In this document: piece after piece, positions 13,590-36,358 of the stretch
Position numbering within the stretch: position 1 is the stretch's first letter
How the letters are laid out: each line of letters starts with the position of its first letter
Source: an uncultured Actinomycetes bacterium
GTDB lineage: Bacteria > Actinomycetota > Thermoleophilia > UBA2241
Assembly (NCBI GenBank): GCA_963725665.1
Contig: CAVRZA010000007.1
Span: forward strand, 1 to 42,647
Reading direction: 5' to 3'
DNA length: 42,647 nt
The notes under the pieces: generated by a model
What the model saw: the letters and a program-made list of their open reading frames with translations, nothing else
Told to the model about the DNA's origin: nothing
Database searches by the model: none
Made by a program: the position numbers and the translations under genes

Positions 13590-13598
13590 GTGACCTCC

Positions 13599-18948: not shown

Positions 18949-18968
18949 GCCAACTCCCTACGACTCGA

Positions 18969-19814
18969 CTATCTGAGGACTGGACCTTTGCATGAGTCCG
19001 TGCGCCCAAGACCGGTGGTCGTTGGCCGGGCTACGGCCAGGAAGTAGCCGACCTTGTCCCTCCTGACGGTGGCAGCGGACACAGCAGGTTCGGGCAACAA
19101 CAATGCCGCGGCGCATGGACCCGTTCGACAGCCGAGCAGCCTGGCTAGCCTCGCGACCGGAATGCCGGCGAACACCGTCCTGGCCACCAGTTGCACCAGC
19201 TCGGCGGAATGGTCTTGCCAGACCTCTAGCGTGAGGGCGCAGTCACGCAGCAGGCGCTCCCAGGCCTGCGCCGTGTCACCCTGGCCTCCACCGCAGCGAG
19301 CGTAGACGTCTGACACGACGAGGCGGCCGCCCGTGCGCAGCACGCGTGCCGCCTCGCGCAGAGCCCGTTGGCGGTCGTCGACCAGTGACAGCACGCACTC
19401 CATAAACACACCATGGAACGTCGCGTCCCCAAACGGCAACGCCTCTGCGCGACCCTCGCGGAGCTCGATCCCGGGATAGCGCCGACGGGCCTCGGCAAGG
19501 AGCACGGTACTCGGCTCCACACCCACGACGTCGAACCCCTTGGCCTTCAGGAACCCCGCGCTAGCGCCGAGCCCGCAGCCGACATCCAGCAGGCGTGCGC
19601 CGGGTTCGAATCGGCAGAGCCCCAGGGCGCGGCCGGTCAACTGGAGGCCGCCCGGACGCAGTACGCACCCGATGCCCTCCCAGAGCGCCGCGTCCTCGTA
19701 CGACGGGGAGGCCGAAACCATGTTATCGCCGCCCGCACTGAGTTGGTCCGGTACGCCTTCGCGATGGGCGGGCGAAGGGGTCGCCTCGAGGAAGGAGAGT
19801 TCACCGGGGTCCAC
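18969..19814 (-). CDS. Class I SAM-dependent methyltransferase (DVU_1556-like)
   Basis: LRPGGLQLT, LLDVGCGLG, AEALPF, ECVLSL and RVLRTGGRLVVSDVY motifs. Start is uncertain: GTG 19814 with AGGAGG, or ATG 19721. Confidence 0.87.
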   Translation of the reverse strand: MDPGELSFLEATPSPAHREGVPDQLSAGGDNMVSASPSYEDAALWEGIGCVLRPGGLQLTGRALGLCRFEPGARLLDVGCGLGASAGFLKAKGFDVVGVEPSTVLLAEARRRYPGIELREGRAEALPFGDATFHGVFMECVLSLVDDRQRALREAARVLRTGGRLVVSDVYARCGGGQGDTAQAWERLLRDCALTLEVWQDHSAELVQLVARTVFAGIPVARLARLLGCRTGPCAAALLLPEPAVSAATVRRDKVGYFLAVARPTTTGLGRTDSCKGPVLR

Positions 19815-20625
19815 TGGCGATCTCCTCCTGCTCCGCACTGCCGAAAGCGCCGGGCACGTGTCTGTCCGTGGCCTCTCGTGCCCAATAGACCTTGCGGCAG
19901 TGCTTGGACAGCGCCGGCGTTCCGGCTCCCTGCCGCACCGCCGCGACCACTCGCTCGTTCTCGACCGGGACCATCCCTGCCAGCAGGTGCACCGGCAGCG
20001 CGCGATAGGCGTCGGGCAGCATCGGCGTCGTGGGTCCCAGGACCATCACCTTGACCCTCTCAGTCACGCGCTCGAGAAAGAGCTCTAGTGAATCGTTGAG
20101 GATCGTCGTTGCCGTGACGATCAGGACGTCCGGCCAGTGCGCGAGAGCGTTCACGAAAGCAGCCTCGTCCCCCATGCGCTCGTCCCGATCGAGGATGCTC
20201 AGCTCCGCTCCGGCATCCTGCAAGCTGCGCGCCACGGGAGGGAAGTAGCCGACCATGGCGACCCGGGTGCCCTCACGCACCGCGAACCGAGCCATGAAGG
20301 CACCGCCAGGAGCATCGTCTCGCGGAAGCGTGAGCGCCTGAGGCTGGTTGAGGGCATTGACCAGCGCGACACCCATCGTTCGTTCGAGCGTGTCGTCGCT
20401 GCGCAGGTACTCGAGCAGCTCGGTCGCCGGCGCGTCGTCGAAGTCGCGGTACGCGCGCACGTGGGTGCAGCACGCCGTCCGGTCGATCATGGAGTAGCTG
20501 AGGCCCACACCGCCGTCGGCGGTGGCCACCGCCGTGTAGCCGAGCCCGATGGTCAGCTCAGCCACCGACGTCGCCGCCGCCCGTTCGTGTACCGCCGCGT
20601 AGAGGCTGTCGACCAGCTCTCTCAT
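19801..20625 (-). CDS. Second DUF364/DUF4213 family protein
   Basis: IGLGYTAV, GVALVNAL, VAMVGYFPP, TATTILNDSL and VLGPTTPM motifs. The ATG overlaps the upstream stop. Confidence 0.83.
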   Translation of the reverse strand: MRELVDSLYAAVHERAAATSVAELTIGLGYTAVATADGGVGLSYSMIDRTACCTHVRAYRDFDDAPATELLEYLRSDDTLERTMGVALVNALNQPQALTLPRDDAPGGAFMARFAVREGTRVAMVGYFPPVARSLQDAGAELSILDRDERMGDEAAFVNALAHWPDVLIVTATTILNDSLELFLERVTERVKVMVLGPTTPMLPDAYRALPVHLLAGMVPVENERVVAAVRQGAGTPALSKHCRKVYWAREATDRHVPGAFGSAEQEEIASGPR

Positions 20626-23192
20626 TTGTCCTCCAACGCCTGCTCGACCTCGAGCATCCGGCCGGTGGCGAGCTCCTCCGAGATGAGCACGAGCCCGTGC
20701 TCGACGCACGCCGGCAGCTTCACCGGGAAGCCCGCAACCAGATAGGAGAGCGTCACCGAGCGTAGCTCGAGCGCGTGATCCCCCGGAGCGCAGCGCCACA
20801 GCCGCCCCTCGACCTCTTCCAGGGCGTCGGCCGCGGGCCACGGCGGAGGCTTGATCTCGATCCGGTGACTATAGGCGCTGTGGACGACGAAGCGATCGCC
20901 GTCTGGAGAGTACTCCACCCAGTACGTCACGGCGCCGATCGACGTGCTCCCGAGCAGATGCCCGGTCTCAGGCTCCTTGAAGTGCCGACCGGTCGCCTGT
21001 GCGTGAACGATCACCTGATGGACCTCTTCGGGACGGATGTATCGCCGCTCGAGCATGTCCTCGACCTCGGTCGCGAGCACGAGGTCGTCGCGCCAGCCCG
21101 CGCCGGGGGCGGCACCCTCGTGCCAGAGGTCGGCGAGCAGTAGTTGCTTGAGCGCCGCGCGCTGCTCCGACCGCTGCGTCAGCACGGGCCCGCGACGCTC
21201 GGCGCGCCTGTCGTACGCCTCGGCGAAGACGAGGTCCAGGAGGTGCACCGCTCGCTTGCCCCTGGCGGCAAAGCGGTCGCGGCACATGGCGCAGTAGGCG
21301 ACGAAGTCGGCGTCGCCCTCAGCGATGCGGCGCTGGACGACCGCGTCGCCCATCTCCGGATTGGCGTAAAGCATGAGCCCGCCGAACCCGCAGCACTCCG
21401 TGCGTTCGCGCGACATCGCGAGCTCGTCGACCCGGTAGCCGCAGGCGGCGACGAGCTCGCGGACGGCGCGCTGGACGTTGGTCTGATAACGCGCCGTGCA
21501 GGCATCGTGGACTGCCACGCGACGCCCCCCGCCCGCGCCGGCCGCACCGTCGGGCAACCCGGTATCGCGTAGCACCTCCCAGAGCGAGACCGTCTCGAAC
21601 TCGGGCAGATGCGCCTCGAAGACGGTCTCGCAGGTAGGGCAAGCGAGGACGACCCGCGACGCGCCCAGGCCCCTCAGACGCTCGCGAAGGCCGGCAAGGG
21701 TCTCGGCGAAGACGCCAGCCTGGCCGGCCCAGTCGGCCGGAGCACCGCAGCAGAAGAGGACGAGCCCGGTACGCGGCTCGAACCGCTCCAGCAGATAGGC
21801 ATAGGCGCGTTCCACTTGGGCGGGGTCCGAGGCCGCGAGCTGGCAGCCCGGGAAGAACACGGCATCGCTCCTGTCCGTACCGGGGGCGTGGCGCGCCAGC
21901 GCGGACCGCTCGTCCACGGCGAGCCGGAGATCTTGCACGGCGAAGTCGAAGGCGGAGGCCGGCATCCTGCCCTGCCTCACCATCTCCCGCCGTGAGTCTC
22001 GGATCACTTCGGCCATGTCGAGGTCCGTGGGGCAAACCTCGTAGCAGAGGCGGCAGAGGCTACACGAGTCGATCATCTTGTTGGCCGACCGAGAGCCTCT
22101 GCCCATCGTCACAGTGAGGTTGTTGTAGATGCGCCGCGCATACAGCCCGGGGTGCGCGCCGAACGCCTCCAGATACGCACACACCTTGACGCACTCGAGG
22201 CACTCGCACTGCAGACAGCGCTTCGCCTCCGCGACGGCCTCCTCCCGCGTGTAGCCGACCGCGGGGTCGGCCGCGCTCTCAGGTGCCGCACTCTCGACGC
22301 GCGCGAGGTTGACGACCAGACTCGTCGCGAAGCCGCCGCGATCCTCGCGGGACGCCGCCAGGGAGACGCGCTGCAGCTGCCGGTCGATCGAGAGCGCGGC
22401 CCGCCGCCCGTCGGCGATGGAGGTGATGGGCGACCACGGCTCGGAGGGTCGGAGAATGCTGCCGCCGCAATAGACCCCCGGCGCGCTGGTCGCCAGCGTG
22501 ACCGGGTCGACGGCGATCCTCCCCCGGTCGTCGATGTCGAAGCCGAGGGCGGCGCCGGCGTCGGCCTCGGTGGCACCCGCGGCCAGGTACACGGCGTCGA
22601 CCCCGGGCGCCAGTGCGGCGAGCGCGTTCGCCCCGGCGGGGCGCTCGAGCGCCACGGGAGTGAACGGGACGAATTCGGCTCCGGTCTTCGCAACACCCGC
22701 GCAGTCGGCCCTGAGATCGGCTTCAGCGAGCACGTCGCCGCCGAGGCCGCGGGCACGGCCTCCGGCTCCGTCTCCCGCCTCGAAGACGACGACGGAGTAG
22801 CCTTTGCGAGCGAGCTCGTACGCGGCGCTGAGGCCACTGAGGCCGGCGCCGATCACGGCGATCTGACCCGGCTTCCGGCGGGAGACCGCCGTCGCCGGCG
22901 CCGGCTCCTCGCCGTACTCCATCGCCGCGCGTTCGATAGCGCGGATGCGGATCGCTCCACCGGCCTGCTCGCGCACGCAGGCCGTCTGGCAGGGGGCGTC
23001 GCAGCAGCGTGCGATCACCCGCGGAAAGGGCACCGCCTGCGTGAAGATCCGGCGCGCCTCCGCGAAGTCTCCCCGACGCGCCGCCGCGAGGAGGTCTTTG
23101 GCGTCCACGTGCACCGGGCATGCCGCCTTGCAGGCCGGTGGCTGGTTCTGGATGCACTGCTCCTCGAGATGTTGCAGTCGCTGAAGGTCCAT
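20622..23192 (-). CDS. Pyridine nucleotide-disulfide oxidoreductase/dicluster/CCG-domain protein (DVU_1558-like) with a fused DVU_1557-like C-terminal domain
   Basis: CIQNQPPACKAACP, IGAGLSG, RCLQCECLECVKVC, CSLCRLCYEVCP, FFPGCQL, CCG, HDACTAR, CCGFGG and YCAMCR motifs. Ends LSYL...FPVKLPAC...MLEVEQALEDK. Confidence 0.83.
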   Translation of the reverse strand: MDLQRLQHLEEQCIQNQPPACKAACPVHVDAKDLLAAARRGDFAEARRIFTQAVPFPRVIARCCDAPCQTACVREQAGGAIRIRAIERAAMEYGEEPAPATAVSRRKPGQIAVIGAGLSGLSAAYELARKGYSVVVFEAGDGAGGRARGLGGDVLAEADLRADCAGVAKTGAEFVPFTPVALERPAGANALAALAPGVDAVYLAAGATEADAGAALGFDIDDRGRIAVDPVTLATSAPGVYCGGSILRPSEPWSPITSIADGRRAALSIDRQLQRVSLAASREDRGGFATSLVVNLARVESAAPESAADPAVGYTREEAVAEAKRCLQCECLECVKVCAYLEAFGAHPGLYARRIYNNLTVTMGRGSRSANKMIDSCSLCRLCYEVCPTDLDMAEVIRDSRREMVRQGRMPASAFDFAVQDLRLAVDERSALARHAPGTDRSDAVFFPGCQLAASDPAQVERAYAYLLERFEPRTGLVLFCCGAPADWAGQAGVFAETLAGLRERLRGLGASRVVLACPTCETVFEAHLPEFETVSLWEVLRDTGLPDGAAGAGGGRRVAVHDACTARYQTNVQRAVRELVAACGYRVDELAMSRERTECCGFGGLMLYANPEMGDAVVQRRIAEGDADFVAYCAMCRDRFAARGKRAVHLLDLVFAEAYDRRAERRGPVLTQRSEQRAALKQLLLADLWHEGAAPGAGWRDDLVLATEVEDMLERRYIRPEEVHQVIVHAQATGRHFKEPETGHLLGSTSIGAVTYWVEYSPDGDRFVVHSAYSHRIEIKPPPWPAADALEEVEGRLWRCAPGDHALELRSVTLSYLVAGFPVKLPACVEHGLVLISEELATGRMLEVEQALEDK

Positions 23193-23215
23193 GGTGCGTC
23201 CGTCGCGCGAGGCAA

Positions 23216-23289
23216 GCCGGCCGGTGCCGCTACAGAAGGGGCACCGGCCGGCAGTCGCCCCGGCCGCCGCCGGTGGCGGCGGCCGGGGC
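23216..23289. terminator. Two tandem GC-rich hairpins between mop and the accessory genes
   Basis: 13-bp stem GCCGGCCGGTGCC/GGCACCGGCCGGC (23216-23252) and 15-bp stem GCCCCGGCCGCCGCC/GGCGGCGGCCGGGGC (23257-23289). No U-tract, so termination is not established. Confidence 0.5.
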
Positions 23290-23303
23290 ATCGCTGCTGG
23301 CCC

Positions 23304-26043
23304 TTAAAAGGCCTGGATGTCCTCCTTCATCGCGGCGAGGACCTTCTCGGGCAGCGCCGGCAGGCGCCGCACGCGGGCGCCGCAGGCGTTGTCGATGGCG
23401 TTGATGATGGCCGCGTGCGGCGCCGTCAGCGGCGCCTCGCCGCAGCCCGACGCGCCGTACGGGCCGAGCGGCCGCGGCGTCTCGAGGTACACGACCGTGA
23501 GGTCGTCGGTGACGTCCTTCGGGTACGGGATGCCGCAGGCGCGCATCGAGGTGTGCTTCTCGAGGTCGTCGAAGTCCTCGGTGAGCGCGAGGCCGATCCC
23601 CTGCGAGAGGCTGCCCCACATCTGCCCGTCGACATTCAAGCGGCTGTTGATGACGCCCACGTCGGTGCAGATGAGGAGGTGATCGACGTAGGTCTTGCCG
23701 GTCGCCACCTCGACCGACACCTCGGCGAGGAAGACGCTGTACATGTAGTTGGCGATCGGGGCTACCCTGACCGGTCCTGGGATCGACAAGCTCGCCCGTA
23801 GTCTGCGTCCAGCTGCCTTCGTAGCGCAGGTCGAGGCCCTCGGCCACCATCTCGTCGTAGGTGCGATACCCGCCGCCGTCCTTGCTCATCGCCGTGATCA
23901 GCTTCTCGCAGGCGTCCTTGATGGCGTTGCCCACGAGGACCTGCGACCGGCTGCCACCCGCACCGCCACTGTCGGGACACCTTGCCGTGTCGTTCATGTC
24001 GAGGCTGATCTGTTCCATGGTGAGGCCGAGCGGGCGGAGCGCTTCGTGCGCGGTGCCGAGCGTCCCGCCATCCGAGCCCTGGCCGTGATCCTCCCAGGTG
24101 TTGTAGATGCGCACACCGCCGTCGGGACGCAGCTCGGCCGCTGCGTTGGCGACGTCCTGCCCATCGCCGCCGGCGCCGAAGATGCCGAGGGCGATACCGA
24201 CGCCCTTCTTGACCTCCGGCGTCGATCCCTCGGCCGTGCGCTTCTTGGCCTTGTCGTAGTAGGGCTTGACCATGTCGAAGAGCTTCTTGAAGGAGTAGAC
24301 CTCGTACTCCTGGCCCCACGAGAAGGTGGCGCCGGGCTCGGCGAGGTTCTTGTAGCGCAGCTCGAACGGGTCCATGCCCATCTTCTTGGCGAGCTCGTCG
24401 ACGACGCTCTCCCCGGCGAAGAACGCCTGCGGCGACCCCCAGGCACGGAAGGGGGCACCCCAGGAGTGGTTGGTACGCACCAGCTTGCCGTCGCCGCGCA
24501 TGTTCGGGATGTCGTAGCCCCCGCCGCAGAACATGCCCTTCTGCACGAGGTTGTCGCCGAACTCCATGTACGGCCCGTGGTCGCAGATCCAGTGGTTCTC
24601 CATGCCGAGGAACTTGCCGTTCTCGTCGGCCGCGAGCTTGCAGTGGTAGAAGTGCGGCGAGCGCTTGCCTGTGTAGGCGATCGACATCCAGTAGTCGTAC
24701 TTGAGATAGACGGGGCGGCCGGTCGCCATGTGGGCCGCACCGAGGAGCGCCTCCATGGTGGGGCAGAACTTGTAGCCGAACGTGCCACCCGTGGGGTTCT
24801 GGACCATGCGCAGGTTCTCGAGCTCGACGCCGAGACCCTCGTTGATCATCGCCGCGTGGAAGTTCAAGGCGATGCTCTTCGAGTGGATCGTCAGCCGCCC
24901 CTCTTCGTCGGTGTAGGCGAAGCCGCAGTCCGGCTCGAAGTAGAGGTGCGGCTGGCGCTGCAGGTAGTACTTGCCTTCGACCACGTGCGCCGCGTTCTTG
25001 AAGGTCTCCTCTGTGTCCTCGCCCTTGATCAGCTGCTGGGTGAAGAAGTGGTTGGGCGTACCGGGGTAGATCTCGATGGCGTCGTCGGCCATGGCGTCCA
25101 GCGCGTTCATGTAGGCCGGCAGCTCCTCGAGCTCGACCTTGACCTTGGCGACCGCGGCCTTGGCCTGCTCGAGCGTGTCGGCGCAGACGATCGCCAGGGC
25201 GTCGCCGTACTGGTACACCTTCGTGTCGCAGAGGATCGGCCGCTCCCACCCGTCGGCGAGCACGTCGTCGGGGAACATGACAAGGCCGTTGATGCGGTTT
25301 CGGCCCTTGACGTCCTTGTGCGTGACGACCTTGGCGACGCCCGGCATCTTCTCGGCCTCAGCGACGTCGATGGAGAGCACGTTCGCGTGCGATACCTGCG
25401 CGTGGACGACGGCGCAGTGGAGCGTGCCCGGCGGCATCTTGAGCTCGAGGTCGGCTCCGAAGTCGATCGTGCCGGTGACCTTGGCGCGCGCAGAGGGCCG
25501 TGGAAAGCGCGTGTTCCAGATGTGACCGTCCTGCGGCACCTGGTAGTCGAGCTCCTCCGTGGTCATCTCGCCGCGCAGCACCTTGGCGGCGTCGATCACG
25601 GCATCGACGAGTGGCTTGTAGCCGGTGCAGCGACAGACGTTGGCGTGACGTTGCCACCAGTCCCTGACCTGCTCCCGGGTCGGGTCGGGATTCTGATCGA
25701 GGAGCGCTTTGGACGAGACGATGAAGCCGGGCGAGCAGTAGCCGCACTGGGCGCCGCCGTGCACCATCCAGGCAAGCTGCAGGGGATGCAAGTCGTCGGG
25801 CCGGCCGATGCCCTCAATCGTGGTGATCTGCGACTCCGCCGGGACGCGCTTCATCGTCGTGGTGCACGAACGCACCACCTTCCCGTTAAGGATCACCGAG
25901 CAGGACCCGCACTGGCCCTGGCCGCAGGCGACCTTGGTCCCCGTCAGACCGAGCTGCCCGCGCAGCACGTGTGCTAGCTTGGCGGCCGGGTCCGCGATGA
26001 CGGTCGCGGGAACACCGTTGACAACGAGCACTCTCTTCTCCAT
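23304..26043 (-). CDS. mop: Molybdopterin (MCD)-dependent aldehyde oxidoreductase, Desulfovibrio gigas Mop-like; one +1 indel at about 23760
   Basis: GTKVACGQGQCGSC, AQCGYCSPG, CRCTGY, GGTFGYKF, WEDHGQG, GGSRSQ and GASGCGE (catalytic Glu) motifs. Deleting one base from the G run at 23758-23761 joins ORF 23230..26043 to ORF 23304..23789 (GQGSPIANYMY). Confidence 0.92.
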
Positions 26044-26189: not shown

Positions 26190-26327
26190 TCAGAGAGCCC
26201 CGGGGTCGAAAGACGATGTCGCTTCCCCGAGCGCATTGGGTCCGGGAGTCACGCGCGCCCCGCGCAGTTGCCTACCAACCCGTGAGGAGGGGCTTGCTGG
26301 ATCGCCGGCGACGCAAAGGCGTGGCAT
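26190..26327 (-). CDS. Possible 45-aa leader ORF under the riboswitch SD
   Basis: ATG lies 8 nt after the AAGGAG of the RNA motif (MPRLCVAGDP...FDPGAL). No recognisable homology. Confidence 0.25.
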   Translation of the reverse strand: MPRLCVAGDPASPSSRVGRQLRGARVTPGPNALGEATSSFDPGAL

Positions 26328-26331
26328 GAGA

Positions 26332-26437
26332 TGCTCTCCTTTCCGCACTGGGAGACACGGCGGTTTCCCGCTGTACCCTACCGGCGCAAGCTCCATGGGT
26401 CGCGTGGACCTTTAGGACTCAAGCGCTCGGAGAAGCA
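26332..26437 (-). ncRNA. Moco RNA motif, P3-less (Tuco-type) riboswitch candidate, copy 1, upstream of mop
   Basis: Minus strand reads UGCUUCUCCGAGCGC...CCUAAAGGUC-CACGC-GACCCAUGG...GCGC CGGUAGGGUACAGCGG-GAAA-CCGCCGUGUCUCCCAGUGCGGAAAGGAGAGCA. It shows the CUCCGAGC / CCUAA / GNRA P4 / UCCC..GGAAAGGAG landmarks of Rfam RF01055. A -10 TATACT sits at 26443-26448. Confidence 0.88.
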
Positions 26438-26716
26438 GACAGAGTATATCGGTTCGGTGCGCATTCGGAATAGACGAAGTGATGAATGCGGGCGCCGCTG
26501 GCTCGACAAGCGGTAGTGGCGATCCTCACGTCCTGCGCGGTCGAGGCGTGGCAACGTAGGGGCCAATCGCGACAAAGCTGATGCTGCCGAAGAGAGCGCC
26601 GGTCGAGGCAACCGTGCGAGTTGACACGATAGCCTCCGCCGCGCCACAGTATCCTGACGGTGACGCCAATGTCGCCGATCACAGCCGTTGAATCTCGCAG
26701 CGAGGACCTACCGGCA

Positions 26717-29410
26717 ATGATCGAGCTGACCATAGATGACTTGCCCGCCTCCGTGCCCGAAGGCACCTCCATCCTAGAGGCTGCCAGGAGTGTCGCGATC
26801 GACATCCCGACGCTCTGCTACGAGCGCACGCTGGGTGTAACCGGCGCCTGCCGGCTGTGCATGGTCGAGATCGAGGGCAGCGCCGCGCTCCGCGCCGCCT
26901 GCGCCACGGAGGCGGCCACAGGCATGGTCGTCCGCACCGAATCCGACCTCGTCGTCGAGACGCGGCGCACCCTCCTCGATCTCCTCCTTTCCAACCATCC
27001 TCTCGACTGCATGATCTGCGAGAAGGCGGGTGCCTGCAAGCTGCAGGAGTACTGCTACCGCTACGACGTGGGCGAGACCAGCTATGAGGGCGAGCGCACG
27101 CATCTTGAGATCGACGATGAGAACCACCTCATCCAGCGAGACCAGAACAGGTGCATCCTCTGTGGCAAGTGCGTCGCCGTCTGTCAAAACGTCCAGGTCA
27201 CCAGCGCGATCGACTTCACGCAGAGGGGCTTCGAAGCGGCCATCGACACCTCCTTCGAGCGGCCGCTCAGCCTCGAGAACTGCCGCTTCTGCGGGCAGTG
27301 CGTCGACATCTGCCCCACCGGGGCGCTCACGAACAAGCAGCTCAAGGGCACCCGCACGTGGGACCGCAAGAAGGTCAGGACGACCTGTCCCTTCTGCGGC
27401 GTGGGCTGCAACTTCGACCTGAACGTGGCGAACGGCAAGGTGGTCGGCGTCACGGCCGCCTACGACGCCCCCGTCAACCAGGGCTCGCTCTGCGTCAAAG
27501 GGCGATTCCACACCGACCTCATCGACAGTCCGGAACGCATCACCCAGCCGCTCATCAAGCGCGCCGGGGTGTTCGAGGAGGCGACCTGGGACGAGGCCCT
27601 CGACCTGGTCGCGCGGCGGCTCAAGGAGATCCAGGCCGAGCACGGCCCTATGGCCGTAGGCGTTCTCAGCTCGGCGCGCTGCACCAACGAGGAGAACTAC
27701 CTGCTGCAGCGCCTGACACGGGCGGGCCTGCACAACAACAGTATCGATCACTGCGCCCGTACCTGACACGCTCCAACGGTGGCCGGTCTGGCCGCCACGT
27801 TGGGTTCAGGCGCTATGACCAACTCGATCGGCGAGATCGCCGGCAACGACGTCCTGTTCATCATCGGCTCCAACGCCACCGAGGCGCACCCGATCATCGG
27901 CAACAAGATGAAGCAAGCGGCCCTGCGCGGCGCGAAGCTGATCGTCGTCGACCCGCGCCGCACCGAGCTCGCCGAGCACGCTCATCTCTGGCTGCGGCTC
28001 AAGCCGGGCACGGACAACGCGCTCGTCAACGGGATCCTGAACGCGATCATCGCGAACGGCTGGCACGACCAGTCGTATATCGACGAGCGTTGCGAGGGCT
28101 TCGACGACCTCTGGGAGACCGTCAAGGACTACCCGCCGGAGCGCGCCGCCGAGATCACCGGCGTGCCGGTCCATCTCATCCTCCAGGCGGCCGAGCTCTA
28201 CGCCACAACGCCGCGCGCCGGCATCTTCTACACCCTGGGCATCACCGAGCACACCACGGGTACGGCCAACGTCATGAACCTCGCCAACCTCGGCATGATC
28301 ACGGGCCACATCGGGGTGGAATTCGCCGGCGTCAACCCCATGCGCGGCCAGAACAACGTGCAGGGGTCCTGCGACATGGGCGCCCTGCCCAACTCGTTCC
28401 CGGGCTACCCGAGCGTCAACGATCGCGAAGCGCGCGCCCGCTTCGAGGAGGCCTACGGCGTGTCCATGCCCGAGCAGATGGGCCTGCGCATCCCCGAGAT
28501 GCTCGACATGGCCGTCTACGGCAAGCTCAAGGCGATGTACATCATGGGCGAGGACCCGCTTCTCACCGACGCCGATGCCAACCACGTGCGCAAGGCGCTC
28601 GAGAGCCTCGACTTCCTGGTCGCTCAGAACATCTTCATGACCGAGACGGCCAAGTACGCCGACGTATTCCTGCCGGCGGCCCTCTACGCCGAGAAGGAAG
28701 GCACCTTCACGAACACCGAGCGCCGCGTGCAGCGCGTGCGCAAGGCGGTCGACCCGCCCGGGCAGTGCCGCCCTGACTGGCAGATCATCATCGACCTCAG
28801 CGAACGGCTGGGCCATCACATGCCGTTCTCATCGCCCGAGGAGGTGTTCGAGGAGATCCGCCGGGTCATCCCCGCCTTCGCCGGCATCACCTACGAACGC
28901 CTCGAAAACGAGGGCGGCCTGCAGTGGCCGTGCCCCAGCGAAGACCATCCGGGCACAACATACCTGCATAAGGGCAAGTTCACGCGAGGCAAGGGGCTGC
29001 TGCAGGGCATTCCGTTCGAGCCTCCGGCGGAGCTCACCGACGGGGGGTATCCTATCCTGCTCACCACCGGCCGCATGCTGTACCACTACAACATCTCTAC
29101 GCGCATCTCCGCGAGCCTCGAAATGCTGCGGCCGCACGAGCTCGCCGAGGTCAACCCGGCTGACGCCGACCGGCTCGGCTTCGAGGACGGCGAGCTGGTA
29201 CGTGTGAGCTCCAGGCGCGGTTCCATCACCACGCACATCACGGTCACGGACAAGGTCGCGCCGGGCACCGTGTTCATGACGTTCCACTACAAGGAATCGC
29301 CGGTGAACGAGCTCACGAACTCGGCCTACGACCCCGTCACCAAGACGGCCGAGTTCAAGGTCTGCGCCGTGAAGCTCACGAAGCTCGCAGAGGAAGAAGT
29401 GGCGTCGTAG
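26717..29410 (+). CDS. fdhF: Selenocysteine-containing formate dehydrogenase alpha subunit with NuoG-like N-terminal Fe-S domains
   Basis: ORFs 26660..27766 and 27779..29410 are in frame across the TGA at 27764-27766, giving IDHCART-U-HAPTVAGL. Also TCPFCGVGC, LCVKG, RGQNNVQG and GTFTNTERRVQ motifs. Start MIELTID at 26717. Confidence 0.95.
27773..27803 (+). promoter_or_regulatory. Bacterial SECIS element
   Basis: CCAACG-GUGGCC-GGUCU-GGCCGC-CA-CGUUGG hairpin starting 7 nt after the UGA. The GGUCU apical loop is as in E. coli fdhF. Confidence 0.9.
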
Positions 29411-29427
29411 CAGCAGCCCGCGCCCTG

Positions 29428-29496
29428 GCCGAACAGGGGAGCCTGTTGGCACTACCTCTCCTCGACCGACCCCAGATCCGGGTGCCAGGTAGTGCC
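29428..29496. terminator. Inverted repeats between convergent fdhF and the desulfurase gene
   Basis: AACAGG-GGAG-CCTGTT hairpin and a GGCACTACCT/AGGTAGTGCC 10-bp inverted repeat (29448-29457 / 29487-29496). Confidence 0.4.
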
Positions 29497-29500
29497 TCCG

Positions 29501-30658
29501 CTACTGTGATCGAGCGATAGCCAGCATCGCCTCGAGAGCCCTGTCGATGTGCTCGTCGGTCGTTGAGATCCCGAGGCTGAACCTGACTGCACCGACCTTC
29601 GACGTGCCAAGGTCGGCGTGCACCAGGGGCGCGCAGTGAAGACCAGTCCGCACGGCGATCGAATAGTCGCCGTCAAGGATGGCGCCTACATCGTCGGCGG
29701 GGATCTCGCGCACGGTGCAGGTCACGATGGGCAGGTCGTCCTCACCCAGTGGCGGGCCGTAGACGACGACACCCGGGATCTGCCCGAGACCGTCGCGCAG
29801 CCGCTGCGCAAGCACCATCTCGCGCTGGTGGAGAGTCGTGACGCCCTGGTCCTCGAGGAAGTCGAGGCCCTCGCAGAGACCGATCACCCCGAGCAGGTTG
29901 AGCGTCCCCGCTTCGAGCCGGTGCGGAAACGACTGCGTGTGTTCCAGGCTTTGGGAGTCGACGCCGGTGCCTCCGAACCGCGTCGTCGCCGGGTCGAGTC
30001 CGGGCGAAAGGACGAGCCCTCCGATGCCGCTGGGACCCATGAGAGCCTTGTGCCCGGTGAAGGCGACTGCGGCCGCACCCAGGGCGCGCATGTCGACGGG
30101 GATCTGGCCGGCCGTCTGGGCGGCGTCGACGAGCAGGGGCACGCCGCGCTCCCGACAGACCTGGGCGATCTCCGCCACAGGCTGCACGGTGCCGAGGACC
30201 GATGACCCGTGGCAGACGATCGCCAACGCCGTCGTCGGGCGCAGTGCGCCGGCAAACACGGCCGGGTCGATGCGCCCCGACTCGCCGAACGGCACGAGAT
30301 CGTACTCGACCCCGTCGCGTTCGCGCAGGTGGTGGAGCGGACGGAGCACCGAGTTGTGCTCGAGTCTCGTGGCCACCACGTGATCGCCGGGATGCACACA
30401 GCCCTGGATGGCCAGATTGAGGGCGTCGGTGGCGTTGGCCGCGAAGATGACCCGGTCGGGGTCTGGGGCGCTGAAGAACCGCGCCAGCTTGCCGCGCGCG
30501 GCGCCGACGAGCTCTGAGGCTTCGACCGAGAGATCGTAGCTGCCACGGCCGGGGGAGACGCCGAACCGCTCGTACACCTCGACCATCCGCCGCAAGACCG
30601 CAGCGACCTTGGGGAACGAAGTAGCCGCGTTGTCGAGATAGACGAGCCGCTCAGCCAC
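29501..30658 (-). CDS. Class V PLP aminotransferase, cysteine desulfurase family
   Basis: YLDNAATSFPK, LEHNSVLRP, DAAQTAG, FTGHKALMGP, LEAGTLN and RTGLHCAP (catalytic Cys) motifs. Confidence 0.92.
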   Translation of the reverse strand: MAERLVYLDNAATSFPKVAAVLRRMVEVYERFGVSPGRGSYDLSVEASELVGAARGKLARFFSAPDPDRVIFAANATDALNLAIQGCVHPGDHVVATRLEHNSVLRPLHHLRERDGVEYDLVPFGESGRIDPAVFAGALRPTTALAIVCHGSSVLGTVQPVAEIAQVCRERGVPLLVDAAQTAGQIPVDMRALGAAAVAFTGHKALMGPSGIGGLVLSPGLDPATTRFGGTGVDSQSLEHTQSFPHRLEAGTLNLLGVIGLCEGLDFLEDQGVTTLHQREMVLAQRLRDGLGQIPGVVVYGPPLGEDDLPIVTCTVREIPADDVGAILDGDYSIAVRTGLHCAPLVHADLGTSKVGAVRFSLGISTTDEHIDRALEAMLAIARSQ

Positions 30659-30667
30659 GTTGTCGGC

Positions 30668-31039
30668 TCACAAGCACGTCTTCGGGTTGGGAAGGCCGGC
30701 CAGGCGTCGGGCGCCCCTCTTGATGCCGGCCGGAAAGAGGCCCTCGAGTGCGAGCAAGGACATCTCCGTGCCCGCGACGAGCTGCCGATTGAGGGGCGCC
30801 CGACCGTTGTGGCCGTAGTACTGGCGCAGGAAGTGCAACACCCGCCAGTGCGTCTCGCTCAGGGCGACGAGGCCGGCCTCGGCGGCCAGAGCGACGGCGA
30901 GGTCCTCGCTCCAGTCGTCTGCGCTCCACAGGAACCCCTCGTTGTCGAACAGGACGCGACGGCCGGCGATGTGCCGGTAGCGGCGGCTCAGGCCGAACTC
31001 GCCGGCTGAGCCGCCGCCGGACTCTGGCACCTGCTTCAC
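30668..31039 (-). CDS. TusE/DsrC/DsvC family sulfur relay protein with a single C-terminal Cys
   Basis: DNEGFL...WSEDLA...HWRVLHFLRQYY...LFP...LAGLPNPKTCL. The GTG overlaps the upstream stop. Confidence 0.88.
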   Translation of the reverse strand: MKQVPESGGGSAGEFGLSRRYRHIAGRRVLFDNEGFLWSADDWSEDLAVALAAEAGLVALSETHWRVLHFLRQYYGHNGRAPLNRQLVAGTEMSLLALEGLFPAGIKRGARRLAGLPNPKTCL

Positions 31040-33700
31040 CGCGCCGTCGTGAGCGCCAGCGCCGCCTTGACCTTGTCCGGGGTCGCCGGCAGGTCGTAGA
31101 TGCGCACGCCGATGGCATCCTCGATCGCATTGAGGACGGCCGGCGCCGTCGGGACCAGCGTCATCTCGCCGACGCCCACCGAGCCGTTGCTCCCATGCTT
31201 GCGTGGCGTCTCGCGGATGATCACGTCCATGTCGAAGGCGGTGCGCATGCTCGGGTATTTGAACGTGACCCAGTCCTTGGTCTCACCCGCGATGTACTGC
31301 TCACGCAGCGCTAGGCCGACGCCCATGTCCATGCCGCCCTGCAGCTGACCGATGACGTTGTCGGGATGGATGATGGTTCCCGCGTCGACCGCGCACGTCA
31401 TCTGCAGAACGCGAACGTCGCCGGTCTCGGTGTCGACCTCGACTTCGGCGAGCTGCAGCGCGTGAACCTGCGACTCGAACGAGGGTCCCTGCCCCGTCTC
31501 GGGATCGAGGTTGCCGACGACCATCTTCTTCGTGCCCATGTAGCGCGTGGGGACGCCCGCCTTCTGCAGGTCGGCGTAGCCTGCCGCGCCGCAGTCGGCC
31601 ATGGCACGCTTGAGCTGGGCGATGGCGTCGAGCAGCGCGCCGCCGGACATGTAGGTGAGGCGGCTGGCGGCCGCGGGTCCGTTGGCCGTGGTGTGGTCGG
31701 TGTCCCGTGTGACCAGTCGCACCTTGTCGAGCGGCAGACCGATGGCGTCGGCGGTGAGCTGAAGGAGCATGGAGTCGTTCCCCTCGCCGGGGTCGGCGAC
31801 GGCGCCGTAGACCGTCACGCCGTCGTCCGGGTCGAGCTCGATCGCCACCATACTCTGATCGTTGGGGCCGCCGATGCCGAACGCACCGGCGCCAAGGCCG
31901 ACACCCCGCTTCTTGGTCCGGTCGCCGGCCTCACGCGCCTCGCGGACGGCACGCTCGTAGTCGGGCTTGATCGCGTCGCACAGCTCCGGGAACGGCCACT
32001 CCTCCACGACCGCCCCCGTGGACTTGGTCTGGCCCGGAAGCAGCGAGTTGCGCCGCCGGAACTCGAGCGGGTCGATGTCCATCTTGCGGGCCAGCATGTC
32101 GATCGCGCTCTCGAGCGCGTAGTTGACCTGGGGCGGGCCGGCGCCGCGTGCCGCGGCCCCCCAGGGATTGTTGGTGTAGACCAGTCGCGCGAGCGCGTCG
32201 ACGTTGGGGATGTTGTACGAGCCCGATAGCATCTACACGGCGCGCAGCATGACGACGTTGCCCATCGAGTTGTAGGCGCCGTTGTCGACCAGGATGTCCA
32301 TGGTGAGGGCGGTGAGGTGGCCGTCGGCGTCGGCCGCCAGCTTGAGCTTCATGTCGAAGGGGTGCCGTTTGGGGCTGAGGTACATCGACTCGAGGAGGCT
32401 AGGCACGTAGCGCGACTGCTCGTCGGAAGTGGAGGGCGGCAGCGGCGGCGATGCCCTCGGAGGTCACGTCGATCTTGATGCCGAACTGACCGCCCGACGA
32501 AGGCCTCCTCGTAGCGCATGTTCTCCCAGCCGGTCGCCTCCTGCAGCATGGCCAGGTGCTTGTGGATGTTGATGCTGCGACCGACGACGACCAGCTGCGC
32601 GTCGTCGCCCTCGCCCTCGAAGAAGGCGAGACACGCCTCGGGCTCCAGCGGCGCCTGGTGGTTGATCTGGGTGATGAAGCGACCTTCGACGACCGCCGCG
32701 GACTCGGCAAGGGCCTTGTCGGCGTCGCCCTTGATCTGCGGTTGGGTCAGGCAGACGTTGGCCCACTCGTCGTGAATCTGTGGCGCACCCTCGGCCATCG
32801 CCTCTTCGGGCGAGCCGAGCACGGGCAGCGGCTCGTAGTCGACCTCGACGGCCGCTGCCGCCGCCACGGCCTGGTCGCGCGTCTCGGCCGCCACCACCGC
32901 CACCGGGTCGCCGATGTAGCGCACGCGATCCTCGCAGAGCACCGGCCGGTCGGCGACCATGTAGTTGTGACGGTTGGTGCCCTTGATGTCCTTAGCCGTC
33001 ATGACGCCCACCACACCGGGCATGGCCGCCGCCGCCCGCGTGTCGATGCCGCGGATGAGCGCGTGAGCGTGGGGACTGTGCACCGCCGCCAGCTCCAGCG
33101 CTCCCGGGAGCGGCGATGTCGGCCGTGAACTCGGCCACGCCGCAGGCCTTGATCATGGCCGACGGGCGCGGGTGCGAGACGCCGATCTTGGGACCGTCGG
33201 GGTCGGGACGCAGGGCGTCCGGCGGGTCGTCTCGCCGCGCAGGAACGCGCCGGCCAGCTGCACGGCCTCGATGATCTTGACGTAGCCGGTGCAGCGGCAG
33301 AGGTTGTGGCGCAGCGCGCGCTTGATCTCCTCGGTGGACGGGATCGGGATTCGCGTCCAGCAGGGCCTTGGTCGCCATGATCATGCCGGGGGTGCAGAAG
33401 CCGCACTGGATGGCGCCGGAGAGCACGAAGGCCTCCTGGATGAGGTGGGGGTTCGCCGGCGTGCCCAGACCCTCGACGGTGATGACGTCGGCGCCGTCGA
33501 GGCGGCTCACCTTGGTCAGGCACGACCTCACTGCCTTCGCCGTTGACGATGACCGTGCAGGCTCCGCACTGGCCCTTCTTGTCGCAGCCCTGCTTGGCGC
33601 CGGTCAGTCGCAGCTCGTCTCGGAGCAGATCGAGCAGGACGAGGTCGGGGTCGACCACGACCTGTCGCGGCCTCCCGTTGATCGTCAGCGTGACCTTCAT
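31036..33700 (-). CDS. Second Mop-like xanthine oxidase-family Mo oxidoreductase with several single-base indels between about 32230 and 33540 (error-ridden or pseudogene)
   Basis: Fragments in shifting frames: MKVTLTING...TGAKQGCDKKGQCGAC; GAIQCGFCTPG; NLCRCTGY; DRPVLCEDRV; HQAPLEPE; GGQFGIK; DNGAYNS; RGAGPPQ; GSVGVGEM. AGGAGG SD. Confidence 0.85.
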
Positions 33701-33847
33701 GCGGGTTGTCCTCCTGCAGTGGTTCGCCGTCACAGCTGCCCTGCTTCTCTCGGCGCCCGACGCACTGCCCGTTCGGTACGAGACCGCACGCGACGTGCAA
33801 GCGCTACATCCAGGTGCAGGAGAGCCCGCGCGACCACACGGGAACGG

Positions 33848-33955
33848 ATGCTCTCCTTTCCGCACTGGGAGACACGGCGCTTTCGCGCTGTACCCTACCG
33901 GCGCAAGCTCCGTAGGCCACGAGGGCCCCTAGGACTCGAGCGCTCGGAGAAGCAT
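33848..33955 (-). ncRNA. Moco RNA motif, P3-less (Tuco-type), copy 2, upstream of the second Mop-like gene
   Basis: Near-identical to copy 1, with compensatory changes (GCGC-GAAA-GCGC; GGCC-CUCGU-GGCC). A -10 TATTGT sits at 33961-33966. Confidence 0.88.
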
Positions 33956-34087
33956 TCTTCACAATACCTTCTGGCGCGCTGTCGCGCACACGCCAAAGAG
34001 CTGAGATTATCCGGCGTGGCTCGTCAGGTTGGAGCCGAGCGGCCCTGTACCCGAGGCGGCACGGCGTGCTGGACGCGTCCAGGCATC

Positions 34088-34291
34088 CGCGATCTTCTTG
34101 CTGACGGTCAGCGTTGGGAACGGGACGGTCTTCACTCCGGAGCCCGACGACATGTCGGACGCACCGCCGAAGCCGCCGATCAGCTTCCACGGATCCCGGT
34201 CCACACGGCATGAGACGGTGATCGGCGACATCGGGACGCGTCCGAAGCTGCAACGGATGCTGGCGAACCGCTTTCGCCGCGCAAGGCCGTG
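34088..34291 (-). pseudogene. 68-codon remnant paralogous to part of the secreted beta-propeller gene (37004-37207)
   Basis: HGLARRKRFASIRCSFGRVPMSPITVS...WKLIGGFGGASDMSSGSGVKTVPFPTLT versus CGLSKRKRFATIRCTFARVPSAPIAVS...WKLLGMFGGKSDMSAGSGAKTVPFPPLT; 42/68 identical, ungapped, by hand count. Confidence 0.8.
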
Positions 34292-34322
34292 TTGACAGCA
34301 CCTCAGCGGGGTCGCCTATCCT
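34292..34322 (+). promoter_or_regulatory. Putative sigma70-type promoter for RNA motif copy 3
   Basis: TTGACA (34292-34297), 19 nt spacer, TATCCT (34317-34322); the motif begins 8 nt later. The spacer is longer than ideal. Confidence 0.45.
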
Positions 34323-34330
34323 CGGCCGCA

Positions 34331-34426
34331 CTCTCCGAACGGCGAGGCCTACAGGATCTGATCCCACGGCCCGCCGTCTATGGGTCTGGGTGGAAACGCC
34401 CGAGCCTCCCGTGCTTGGAAAGGAGA
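34331..34426 (+). ncRNA. Moco RNA motif, P3-less (Tuco-type), copy 3, upstream of a small CxxC ORF and the aldehyde dehydrogenase
   Basis: CUCUCCGA-ACGGCG-AGGCCUACA-GGAU-CUG-AUCC-CACGGCC-CGCCGU-CUAUGGGUCU-GGGUG-GAAA-CGCCC-GAGCCUCCCGUGCUUGGAAAGGAGA. Confidence 0.87.
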
Positions 34427-34435
34427 ACGCAAACG

Positions 34436-34726
34436 ATGCACCCCGCACTGTTCCGGTGCCCCCGCTGCGGCCACGTTGAACTCCCCGTCAACCCTCTGGC
34501 GCGAACGCGCCTCGAGGAGAGCGGCCTTTGCCAGGGGTGCCGGGCCGCTCGCACCTTGAGCAGACGCCCCTGGCTGACGGCCGACTTCGTGGGTGTGTGG
34601 CAGCGAGTCGGGTTCCCCGCATCGGACTCGTGGTTGCGAGACATCCCCGCCGAGGGCAGCGCACACGCCCCCTTCCTCCGGACAACCGTGGCCGTTCGGT
34701 CGCGCGGATCGGAGCTGGCTCACTGA
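34436..34726 (+). CDS. Small hypothetical protein with two CxxC motifs (zinc-ribbon-like), 96 aa
   Basis: ATG lies 10 nt after the motif's AAGGAG. Sequence MHPALFRCPRCGH...GLCQGCRAAR. Confidence 0.5.
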   Translation: MHPALFRCPRCGHVELPVNPLARTRLEESGLCQGCRAARTLSRRPWLTADFVGVWQRVGFPASDSWLRDIPAEGSAHAPFLRTTVAVRSRGSELAH

Positions 34727-34806
34727 ACGACCCCCCGTCCACTGCCGCTCGGCCGAGCAAACCAACGGTCTGCCAGCCACGCATCGAATCGTAAAGGAGG
34801 CGCACA

Positions 34807-36288
34807 GTGACGAGGACGTACAAGGCGTTCATCAAGGGAGACTGGACCGACTCCTCCACGGGAGACACCTTCGACGTCAGCAATCCCGCGACTGGAGAAG
34901 TGATCGCCCAAGTCTCCAAGTGCGACGCCGCTGATGTCGACCTCGCGGTGAAAGCGGCGCGCGAGGCCGGCCCCACGTGGGCCGGCAAGACCGTGGCCGA
35001 GCGCTCCAAGGTCCTCCTCAAGCTCTCCCAGCTCATTGTGGACAACGGGGAGGAGCTCGCCAAGCTCGAGACCCAGGAGCACGGTTCGCCGTTGCGCAAG
35101 ACGAAGTTCTTCGACGTGCCGCTCTGCGCGGAGCAGTTCGAGTACTTCGGGGGGGTCGCCCGCGCCATGACCGGCGAGACTCTGCCAGTCGGCCCATGGT
35201 GCACGTCGTTCACCGTCCGCGAACCCTTGGGTGTCGTCGGTCTAATCACCCCTTGGAACTCCCCCGCGCTCATGGTCGCGTGGAAACTCGGAGCGGCGAT
35301 GGTGACCGGCAACACCTGCGTGGTCAAGCCGCCGTCCGTCGCGCCCCTCACGACCCTCAGGCTGGCGGAATTGGCCACCGAGGCCGGCGCGCCTCCGGGC
35401 GCGGTGAACGTGATCACTGGCCCGGGTGACACGGTGGGCGAGGCCCTGGTCCGACACCCACACGTGGCGAAGATCGGGGTCACGGGCGACACGGTGACTG
35501 GCAAGCGCATCGTGAGCGTCGCCAGCGAGACGGTGAAGGGGCTGGGGCTCGAGCTCGGAGGCAACAACGCGTTTCTCGTGATGGCCGACGCGGACGTGGA
35601 CGCCGCCGCCGAAGGGGCCACCTTCGGCGCATTCTTCAACTCTCGGCAGGTTTGTGCTTCGGCGAGCCGCTTCTACGTTCACGAGTCGCTCTACGCTGAA
35701 TTCACGGAGAAGCTGGTGGCCTCGGCGAAGCAGCTCCGTGTGGGGGACCCGATGAACATGGAGACGGTCATCGGCCCGGTCGCGTACCCTGAGCATCGAG
35801 ACAAGATCAAGTGGTACATCGAAGGCGCGAAGAAGGCCGGCGCGAAGCTCCTCCTCGGGGGAAAGCGCCCGGACACGCCGGAGACCCGCAGCGGGTGTTT
35901 CGTGGCCCCCACGGTCTTCGGCGACTGCACCCACGACATGGAGTTCATGCAGGCCGAGGTCTTCGGCCCGGTGGTGGGGATCTGCCCCTTCCGGACCCCG
36001 GAGGAGGCGGTCTTCTTCGCGAACGACACGCCCTACGGGCTGAGCGCGTCGATCTGGACCAAGGACGTCCGCGCGGCCCTCGCCATGGCCGGGCAGATCC
36101 AAGCCGGCACCGTGTGAATCAACGAGCACCTGATCGTCTTCTGCGAGACGCCGTGGGGTGGCTGCAAGCAGTCCGGATGGGGGAAGGACCTGTCCACCAT
36201 GGTCCTGGACGAGTACACCCACACGAAGCACATCTACGTAGATCTGACCGGCGAGACCGTCAAGCCGTGGTACACGATTCTTAAGTAG
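34807..36288 (+). pseudogene. NAD(P)-dependent aldehyde dehydrogenase with an in-frame TGA at a conserved Trp
   Basis: ITPWNSP, VVKP, LELGG, QVC and EVFGPV motifs. After GTV-TGA(36115-36117)-IN the frame continues PWGGCKQSGWGK...TKHIYVD to TAG at 36286-36288. Confidence 0.85.
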
Positions 36289-36358
36289 AGAGAGAGGGGG
36301 GGGCGCCTCGCGAAGCCCAGCGTCAAGGCCGAGGAAGCGGTTTGGCAGGCGTGTCGGT

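Follow-up and report, generated by a model that had tools for sequence, protein, structure and literature searches.

P3-less RF01055 aptamers in the leaders of tungsten-independent aldehyde-oxidising enzymes of an uncultured actinobacterium: a possible tungsten-cofactor OFF switch

A P3-less subtype of the molybdenum cofactor (Moco) riboswitch class, Rfam family RF01055, was distinguished by Regulski et al. (2008; PMC2408646), who proposed the tungsten cofactor (Tuco) as its ligand. In the parts of that paper considered here, P3-less RNAs located before putative Moco-dependent sulphite oxidases of Syntrophomonas wolfei were suggested to repress these genes as Tuco rises, on the condition that a Tuco-dependent alternative exists. 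In a later study of Eubacterium limosum (PMC11725836, likewise in part), P3-less copies preceded WOR1, tupABC, iron transporters and focA. In this work, a 42,647-nt contig of an uncultured Actinomycetes bacterium (CAVRZA010000007.1 of assembly GCA_963725665.1; Thermoleophilia, UBA2241) was analysed at its full length, hereafter the window. Three P3-less RF01055 aptamers were located there in the leaders of two Mop-type molybdenum (Mo) aldehyde oxidoreductase genes (Mop1 and Mop2) and of an NAD(P)-type aldehyde dehydrogenase (ALDH) gene. The best joint explanation, which we hold at a probability of about 0.5, is that P3-less tungsten (W)-cofactor OFF switches silence the Mo-dependent and the metal-free aldehyde oxidisers.

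An exchange of W and Mo enzymes is known from Pelobacter carbinolicus, which has W-dependent aldehyde oxidoreductases (AORs) with tungstate and the Mo isoenzyme Pcar_0220 under W limitation, beside NAD-dependent aldehyde dehydrogenases (PMC4275255). Similar behaviour is cited in the sections considered of that paper for Desulfovibrio gigas and Eubacterium acidaminophilum. The replacement of W enzymes by a Mo isoenzyme resembles the outcome predicted here, but no RNA mechanism appears in the parts of PMC4275255 used for this comparison; the paper names no RNA element, and the word "riboswitch" occurs in it 0 times.

The window is an entire contig of a 3.73-Mb genome (label G000; 12 contigs, 68% G+C). 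It was scanned with cmscan against all Rfam families at the curated gathering thresholds, the cut-off for RF01055 being 36 bits. As a result, exactly three matches were obtained, all of them to RF01055 (E values from 6e-14 to 4e-11).

26320..26444, minus strand: RF01055 aptamer 1, P3-less, heading Mop1 (58.6 bits against the cut-off of 36)
33837..33961, minus strand: RF01055 aptamer 2, P3-less, heading Mop2 (56.8 bits)
34321..34441, plus strand: RF01055 aptamer 3, P3-less, heading the ALDH gene (66.3 bits)

The cmscan alignments showed that the P3 hairpin (model positions ~63-78) was deleted in all three aptamers. The conserved core, consisting of P1, P2 with its CCUA bulge, P4 with its GAAA loop, CCUCCC and GGAAAGGAG, was present in each of them and in an alignment of 28 sequences. 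Every aptamer lies in a 5' leader on the strand of its gene, and the enzyme start codons follow after 276, 135 and 365 nt, respectively. The enzyme genes, with the W-family AOR gene of the same contig, are as follows.

23304..26043, minus strand: Mop1, MOP-type Mo aldehyde oxidoreductase with a +1 insertion near 23763 (NF045668, 1DGJ/1SIJ, orthologue alignment and frame hidden Markov model, HMM)
31036..33701, minus strand: Mop2, second Mop-type gene, with six insertions specific to this genome (tblastn, orthologue alignment and frame HMM)
34807..36288, plus strand: NAD(P)-type ALDH, PF00171, with an in-frame TGA at 36115-36117 (Pfam, 507.6 bits)
3714..5426, minus strand: W-family AOR gene, AFOR_N and AFOR_C (Pfam), with no RF01055 upstream

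An earlier note on this DNA, made by a model from the letters and their open reading frames (ORFs), had read three P3-lacking motifs ahead of mop and its accessory operon, of a second Mop-like gene and of an ALDH gene, and none ahead of the W-AOR. The three copies without P3 were confirmed by the covariance search (57-66 bits against 36). The empty AOR upstream region was confirmed as well, no RF01055 match being obtained there at the gathering threshold or even at E<=1. The gene identities also held, but intact enzyme frames did not, since all three are broken in the assembly. The RNAs are genuine P3-less Moco/Tuco-class aptamers in the leaders of three tungsten-independent aldehyde-oxidiser units. 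The 3' halves of aptamers 1 and 2 are nearly identical, a repeat-like feature that would suit chance similarity or non-functional copies of a repeated element. That explanation is refuted for practical purposes by the E values against all Rfam families, by the location of every copy on the strand of its downstream gene, by the retention of the aptamer in orthologous leaders of other genera while the flanks diverge, and by the occurrence of just six copies in the genome, all in cofactor-related contexts.

The window RNAs were then compared with the described systems. With the Moco riboswitch of Escherichia coli moaA, which contains P3, they share the RF01055 core. As far as its description was used here, the moaA riboswitch is ligand-OFF with the ribosome-binding site in the 3' strand of P1, and the site is likewise placed at motif 3 and at an ALDH locus of another genome (L253). 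The window copies differ from it by the absence of P3 and by heading enzymes that use or replace the cofactor, not cofactor synthesis; moreover, window leaders 1 and 2 are about 135-277 nt long, with a distant anti-aptamer element. The proposed logic is that of the cobalamin riboswitches before the B12-independent isoenzymes metE and nrdDG, in which the cofactor shuts off the cofactor-independent alternative, as has been proven experimentally; the RNA family and the ligand differ. In the available account of E. limosum, P3-less RNAs use both translational and terminator platforms, as do those described below, and targets of the iron or TonB type also occur among the matches listed in our sample; the enzyme there is the W enzyme WOR1, whereas here the Mo enzyme MOP and ALDH are headed and the AOR genes lack the motif. 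The S. wolfei sulphite-oxidase RNAs follow the same repression logic, and this genome too has a P3-less copy before an Oxidored_molyb gene; they concern another enzyme family, and the account considered has no aldehyde isoenzyme set and no platform analysis.

The presence or absence of P3 was related to the metal of the downstream genes. Of the six RF01055 copies in the genome, five are 121-125 nt long; the sixth (159 nt), which carries a 37-nt insert at the P3 position, is the sole P3-containing copy and heads modABC. One P3-less copy outside the window precedes a PBP_like_2 binding protein, a permease and an ATPase, followed later by moaA, MOSC and MoCF genes; among NCBIfam families the binding protein matches TupA best, with a sub-threshold score of 152.9 bits. 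The other precedes three ORFs of no family, an Oxidored_molyb gene and WtpA (TIGR03730, 270 against 242.75 bits). Tungsten metabolism is therefore present in the host, as indicated by WtpA above its cut-off, the TupA-like protein below it and 12-13 AOR (AFOR_N) loci, none of which adjoins an RF01055 motif. The genes by which Regulski et al. (2008) set the subtype apart, those for molybdopterin (MPT) synthesis or Tuco use, were found behind the two other P3-less copies of the genome and not behind the three in the window.

Among 30 relatives scanned, 16 carried RF01055, and the first genes were scanned for 39 of 40 copies. The seven P3-containing copies head ModA (four), a MOT1 transporter, a Mo-oxidoreductase and MobAB. 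The short copies head TupA-type proteins (four), MoaA or MobAB-MoaA (five), SBP_bac_11 (two) and Mop (three), and the rest head Mo-oxidoreductases (two, with aptamers of intermediate length), a permease and ORFs of no family (eight). In this genome and its relatives the P3 split thus follows Mo versus W, a correlation that matches the segregation described in the sections considered of Regulski et al. (2008). Several P3-less copies in the family head ORFs of 230-570 aa without a Pfam or NCBIfam family (L007 6096-8775, minus strand; L012, L017, L024, L031, L032 and L034), and in G000 such no-family ORFs behind a P3-less copy precede the Oxidored_molyb gene and WtpA.

The anatomy of the leaders was examined for signs of switch polarity. 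Seven actinobacterial Mop1-type leaders have little common sequence after the aptamer except for an element ~100 nt downstream with the consensus GCGCUCGGRGRAGC, and in all seven aligned leaders this element is complementary to the invariant 5' strand of P1 together with CCGAGCGC. The elements in the window are located as follows.

26220..26235, minus strand: anti-aptamer element of leader 1, UGCGCUCGGGGAAGCG, complementary to the P1 5' strand and CCGAGCGC (duplex -30.6 kcal/mol)
33742..33758, minus strand: anti-aptamer element of leader 2 (duplex -23.5 kcal/mol)

In the anti-aptamer helix, 96.9% of 98 alignment cells were paired, compared with 43-56% when the partner was shifted by 1-3 columns. 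One-sided changes that keep the pairing occur at six pairs; two-sided changes occur at none, since the aptamer dictates the 5' strand. The pairing was strongest in leader 1 and in the leader of relative G017, where it was equalled by 0 of 300 shuffles each, and in leader 2, where 2 of 300 shuffles reached it. The element doubles as the 3' arm of a local hairpin in L355, L357 and L371, and a short run rich in U comes next in these three leaders. In Mop-type leaders of other phyla, five of six (L259, L295, L144, L146 and L151) have strong hairpin and U-tract terminators located 8-54 nt past the aptamer that make no use of P1, and the leader of an orthologous ALDH gene (L056) is built alike. The anti-terminator pairings of these foreign Mop leaders were only weakly better than shuffles (16/200 to 164/200). 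At motif 3 and at L253, an AUG follows the GGAG in the 3' strand of P1 by 7-10 nt (7 nt for the start codon of L253). Judged by their sequences, the anti-aptamer elements or separate terminators of the Mop and ALDH leaders fit ligand-OFF control.

From these layouts we infer the OFF polarity, the ligand and the physiological logic of the window leaders. In the ligand-bound state P1 would close; in leaders 1 and 2 this would free the downstream element otherwise paired with the P1 5' strand, and the freed element could form an attenuator hairpin that turns expression OFF, while without ligand the element would hold the P1 5' strand. In leader 3 the closed P1 would bury the GGAG beside the first AUG. 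For the P3-less aptamers, the most probable ligand is the pterin cofactor in its tungsten form. Aldehyde oxidisers of the Mo and metal-free kinds would then be made only when the W cofactor is short, and when W is available the many motif-free W-AORs of the genome would do the work.

The recurrence of these gene links was surveyed in other genomes. A motif scan by regular expressions missed P3-containing copies and four short copies, so a covariance model built from 28 P3-less copies was used instead. In relatives, the motif precedes Mop1 orthologues in G007 (two paralogues) and G017, and none was found upstream of the Mop1 orthologues of G015 and G001. Among 67 Mop1-family loci of species genomes, the motif was upstream in 6, all from Actinomycetota with 77-85% identity, two of them being G007 and G017 again; no motif was found upstream of the Chloroflexota, Desulfovibrionaceae (two loci, 1.5 kb) and Bacillota loci of the family. 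The Mop2 family, which is widespread in anaerobes, yielded 80 loci, ~64 of them with an upstream region, and the motif was directly upstream in three: two Syntrophomonadaceae metagenome-assembled genomes (MAGs) and one Anaerolineales MAG, where it forms a tandem pair. Nine closest orthologues of the window ALDH (63-78% identity) included one with a P3-less motif directly upstream on the same strand (L056, 65% identical, with the motif followed by its terminator) and six with none. The ALDH behind the P3-less motif of L253 is only 25% identical to the window protein and belongs to a different subfamily, which we take to be of the pyrroline-5-carboxylate dehydrogenase type. The phyla with a P3-less motif before Mop-type genes are presumably Actinomycetota, Chloroflexota, Bacillota (Syntrophomonadaceae) and that of a Thermovirgaceae MAG, as judged from record titles. 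The Mop link recurs across at least four phyla but is patchy.

An exact-pattern scan for P3-less cores gave at least 85 aptamers in at least 80 loci, the key ones of which were confirmed by Rfam. The listed loci provided 78 aptamer-to-gene units, after three without downstream room and L279 (a 79-aa ORF only) had been left out; when the first ORF was shorter than ~100 aa, the next was scanned instead. Among these listed matches, the first genes were TupA-type (16), MoaA plus one with Radical_SAM only (8), W-type AOR (6), iron or TonB-type transport (6), MoeA (3), Mop-type (3), ABC permeases (3), FDH-like (formate dehydrogenase-like; 2), SBP_bac_11 (2), ALDH (1) and Oxidored_molyb (1), the rest being single other families or no family. 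P3-less aptamers before TonB-dependent receptors, OMP_b-brl_4 barrels and iron-type ABC parts were seen at L246, L309, L297, L306, L263 and L285, and tandem P3-less pairs before one gene at L146 1372-1714 (Mop-type), L245 3589-3902 (FDH-like) and L300 5251-5541 (an ORF of no family). In a Desulfuromonadales MAG, a cobalamin riboswitch (L248 4450-4629, plus strand) lies just downstream of an AOR gene headed by a P3-less aptamer.

These counts bear on a rival interpretation, in which P3-less aptamers are generic pterin-cofactor sensors (of Moco, metal-free or any-metal MPT) that possibly act as ON switches before Mop, the ALDH cases being by-products of the neighbourhood. Such sensors would agree with the tungsten-ligand assignment resting on gene correlation, with the P3-less copies before moaA and moeA, which are needed for both cofactors, and with the heading of W and Mo enzymes alike among the 78 listed units (AOR, Mop, FDH-like and Oxidored_molyb, counted above). 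They would also agree with ALDH orthologues that stand beside Moco genes even where the motif points away (L052 and L055), and with ALDH pairs just upstream of a tup/moaA riboswitch in G000 and four relatives. They are harder to reconcile with the clean subtype split in the genome and its relatives, with modA behind P3-containing and TupA/WtpA behind P3-less copies, and with the Mop and ALDH leaders, whose P1-independent terminators or anti-aptamer elements give an OFF layout and not the ON layout of the one AOR leader described below. A cofactor repressing its own enzyme would, moreover, be less sensible than cross-repression. We therefore regard generic sensing as rather doubtful.

The ALDH pair just mentioned immediately precedes, in the same orientation, the P3-less riboswitch heading tup/moaA (G000 C6:519884-522858), and the order is kept in four relatives (G008 C64, G007 C13, G002 C206 and G013 C55). 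This synteny ties aldehyde dehydrogenases to tungsten cofactor supply without riboswitch control of those ALDHs.

In the sequence of one W-type AOR leader with a P3-less aptamer (L283, from a Chloroflexia MAG; 1708-1982, minus strand), the 5' arm of a strong terminator is the P1 3' strand, so that ligand binding should prevent termination. L283 is thus a candidate ligand-ON member of the class.

Several findings nevertheless weigh against silencing of the Mo and metal-free enzymes by a W-cofactor OFF switch. In the portions considered, the Tuco assignment of Regulski et al. (2008; PMC2408646) is a proposal drawn from gene correlation, and the E. limosum study (PMC11725836) assumes this ligand. 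Repression of a Moco enzyme by Tuco had already been proposed in 2008, so the W/Mo/metal-free switch is not conceptually new. The anti-aptamer pairing was weak or not significant against shuffles in G007 (28/300), its paralogue (62/300), leader 3 (12/300) and L056 (154/300). Leaders 1 and 2 showed no U-tract terminator, and simple scans for promoters and terminators were negative in both leader regions. When five leaders were folded under constraints, the Mop ribosome-binding site was not consistently more or less accessible in the aptamer-closed than in the anti-aptamer state, and no consistent second partner common to the anti-aptamer elements emerged. The five other AOR leaders have ribosome-binding sites of their own that are able to pair with aptamer segments, which leaves their polarity ambiguous. 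No motif was found within 1.5 kb upstream of the eight closest Mop1 orthologues (86-89% identity). At the two closest ALDH orthologues (L052 and L055) the motif is on the opposite strand and heads modA, and the ALDH link, although real, is rare, with two other genomes found (L056 and L253). W-AOR genes are themselves headed by the P3-less class in 6 of the 78 listed units. Finally, Mop1, Mop2 and the ALDH gene are all interrupted as assembled.

The earlier note had taken a Moco/Tuco motif before a cofactor-free ALDH as its unexpected part. The placement is real; its surprise is lessened by the iron transporters and focA behind P3-less RNAs in the part of the E. limosum work cited above (PMC11725836), which mean that control of non-cofactor genes is not new. 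A survey for motifs before Mop or ALDH genes, which the note had suggested as a check, bore out the Mop link across phyla and gave the ALDH link in just two other genomes. The central proposal of the note, a W-pterin OFF switch for the Mo and metal-free alternatives, is favoured by the P3 split along Mo and W, the anatomy of the Mop and ALDH leaders, the ON-type layout of L283 and the enzyme replacement in P. carbinolicus (PMC4275255, in part); it is weakened by the headed W-AOR genes, the rarity of the ALDH link and the three broken targets.

The broken frames were analysed gene by gene. Residues 1-757 of Mop1 matched NF045668 with 1267 bits against the NCBIfam equivalog cut-off of 1100, and the protein matches solved Desulfovibrio MOP structures (1DGJ, 1014 bits). 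The similarity to 1DGJ/1SIJ spans residues 1-762 only, and the MoCoBD_2 match covers positions 8-198 of 283; both ends are explained by a +1 insertion. The assembled ORF (23230-26043) runs out of frame after codon ~763. Alignment with two orthologues placed one extra base near 23763, in agreement with the frame HMM, and the true C-terminus lies in the frame 23304-23772, ending just before the start of the next gene at 23291. The shift costs ~145 C-terminal residues, and the out-of-frame tail still matches orthologues. Mop2, ~35% identical to Mop1, is split into at least five frame pieces (tblastn frames -2/-3/-1/-3/-2). Compared with three orthologues (81-87% protein identity), it has insertions near 33538, 33339, 33226 (2 nt), 33114, 32495 and 32414, 7 nt in total, and it also carries a TAG. 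A single frame of ~905 aa with Fer2, Fer2_2, hammerhead, MoCoBD_1 and MoCoBD_2 domains was found in neither Mop1 nor Mop2.

The ALDH matched positions 1-420 of 461 of PF00171, and none of the NCBIfam equivalogs reached its cut-off. Its codon 437 is TGA where all eight orthologues have TGG for an invariant Trp, and the intact frame expected, ~494 aa, is not present; the 57 codons past the stop are 89% identical to the nearest orthologue. Recoding of this TGA as selenocysteine or Trp was discarded as improbable, given the invariant Trp at this position and the lack of any other sign of such a code; no search for selenocysteine insertion sequence (SECIS) elements was made.

A decaying locus would account for these breaks: Mop2, ALDH and perhaps Mop1 would be real pseudogenes in a lineage rich in W-AORs, and the riboswitches relics without a working target. 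The six insertions within 2.7 kb of Mop2 together with its TAG, the loss of the C-terminus of Mop1 and the 12-13 AOR loci favour decay, as does the TGG-to-TGA change of ALDH, which is a substitution and not an indel. To judge it, frame-break candidates were counted with a codon-position HMM as same-strand frame switches without a stop of the upstream frame within 60 nt. The whole genome gave 589 candidates, or 16 per 100 kb, compared with 2.5 per 100 kb in a 200-kb sample of relative G018 (a single contig of similar G+C) and 7.5 per 100 kb in a 200-kb sample of G003. The candidates were clustered (46 clusters of at least three, the largest with 14 at C6:61575-63102), and the Mop2 cluster is one among many. 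The modA gene behind the P3-containing riboswitch is split over two frames in a cluster of three candidates (L009 373-2126, equal to G000 C6 ~99.5-101.3 kb). The excess of breaks throughout the genome means that the indels may be assembly errors and makes the single shift of Mop1 unremarkable for this assembly; the 589 breaks represent either many assembly indel errors or many decayed genes.

A public DNA run holding a small share of the sampled words was compared over 31000-36400, and exact contigs were obtained only at 35878-36249. One of them, of 219 nt, spans the ALDH TGA without difference, although the run may share its sample with the assembly. Over Mop2 the run yielded low-identity fragments of other organisms, uninformative on the frameshifts of that gene, and among the listed public runs no RNA run held the locus. 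The ALDH stop is thus the only break with outside support. The sequences past the breaks are well conserved and the aptamers are intact and score well. Relic riboswitches in a decayed locus appear unlikely, and the breaks themselves may stem from assembly error or from real decay.

The remaining features of the window are the following.

12762..23291, minus strand: genes co-directional with Mop1 (Pfam and NCBIfam)
29501..31130, minus strand: downstream of Mop2, a 159-aa ORF of no family and a cysteine desulfurase family protein (TIGR01977; Pfam/NCBIfam)
34436..34726, plus strand: possible leader ORF of 96 codons, coding unsupported

Behind Mop1, the gene order is a flavo/FeS protein (NF045663) fused to a DVU_1557 domain, DUF364, a methyltransferase, GCAxxG, radical-SAM TrsS, an AMP-binding protein, XdhC, a MobA-like NTP transferase and DUF364. 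Judged by strand and spacing, Mop1 and these genes probably form one operon. They include the NF045663 "dicluster near Sec" oxidoreductase with its DVU_1557 fusion (20622-23291, minus strand) and TrsS, a radical SAM "seleno" protein (17135-18568, minus strand); by these family names the neighbourhood recalls what we take to be the gene set beside the aldehyde oxidoreductase of Desulfovibrio vulgaris. On the other side of leader 1, an NAD-type formate dehydrogenase with a NuoG-like N-terminus and molybdopterin domains (26660-29410, plus strand) is read as two ORFs, and the in-frame TGA that joins them at 27767-27769 most likely encodes selenocysteine. In L245 and L307, the FDH-like genes headed by P3-less motifs also end at ~360 aa. 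An ORF of 44 codons after aptamer 1 was considered as a leader peptide and dropped, as it is not conserved in orthologous leaders.

The 96-codon ORF starts right at the 3' end of aptamer 3, and 10 nt separate its AUG from the GGAG in the 3' strand of P1. Its G+C content at third codon positions is 0.81; the frame HMM called it non-coding, no Pfam or NCBIfam match was obtained, and 40 relatives gave weak matches in three (best E 2.4e-4, 18-22 bits), none of them convincing.

In summary, the W/Mo/metal-free switch appears to be a plausible and reasonable hypothesis, now better supported by the regulon split, the OFF-type leaders of Mop and ALDH and one ON-type AOR leader. For this genome some caution is needed, since in the assembly the three target genes and many others have interrupted frames. 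The literature searches made here returned no paper that connects RF01055 with Mop-type or ALDH genes, although supplementary tables or lists of the RegPrecise type may hold cases; together with their recurrence across phyla, this means that Mop-type genes appear to add to the known regulon. Leaders of P3-less type before Mo, W and cofactor-free enzymes of one reaction give opposite predictions for tungstate and molybdate, so that the question of the P3-less ligand becomes testable with reporters. Tentatively, one aptamer class with opposite platforms may act as a metal-dependent isoenzyme selector, in which the W cofactor turns W-AOR ON (as at L283) and the Mo-MOP operons and NAD-ALDH OFF, together with tungstate uptake and MPT synthesis. 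If so, this selector would be the RNA mechanism behind the W/Mo replacement of aldehyde oxidoreductases in Pelobacter, Desulfovibrio gigas and Eubacterium acidaminophilum.

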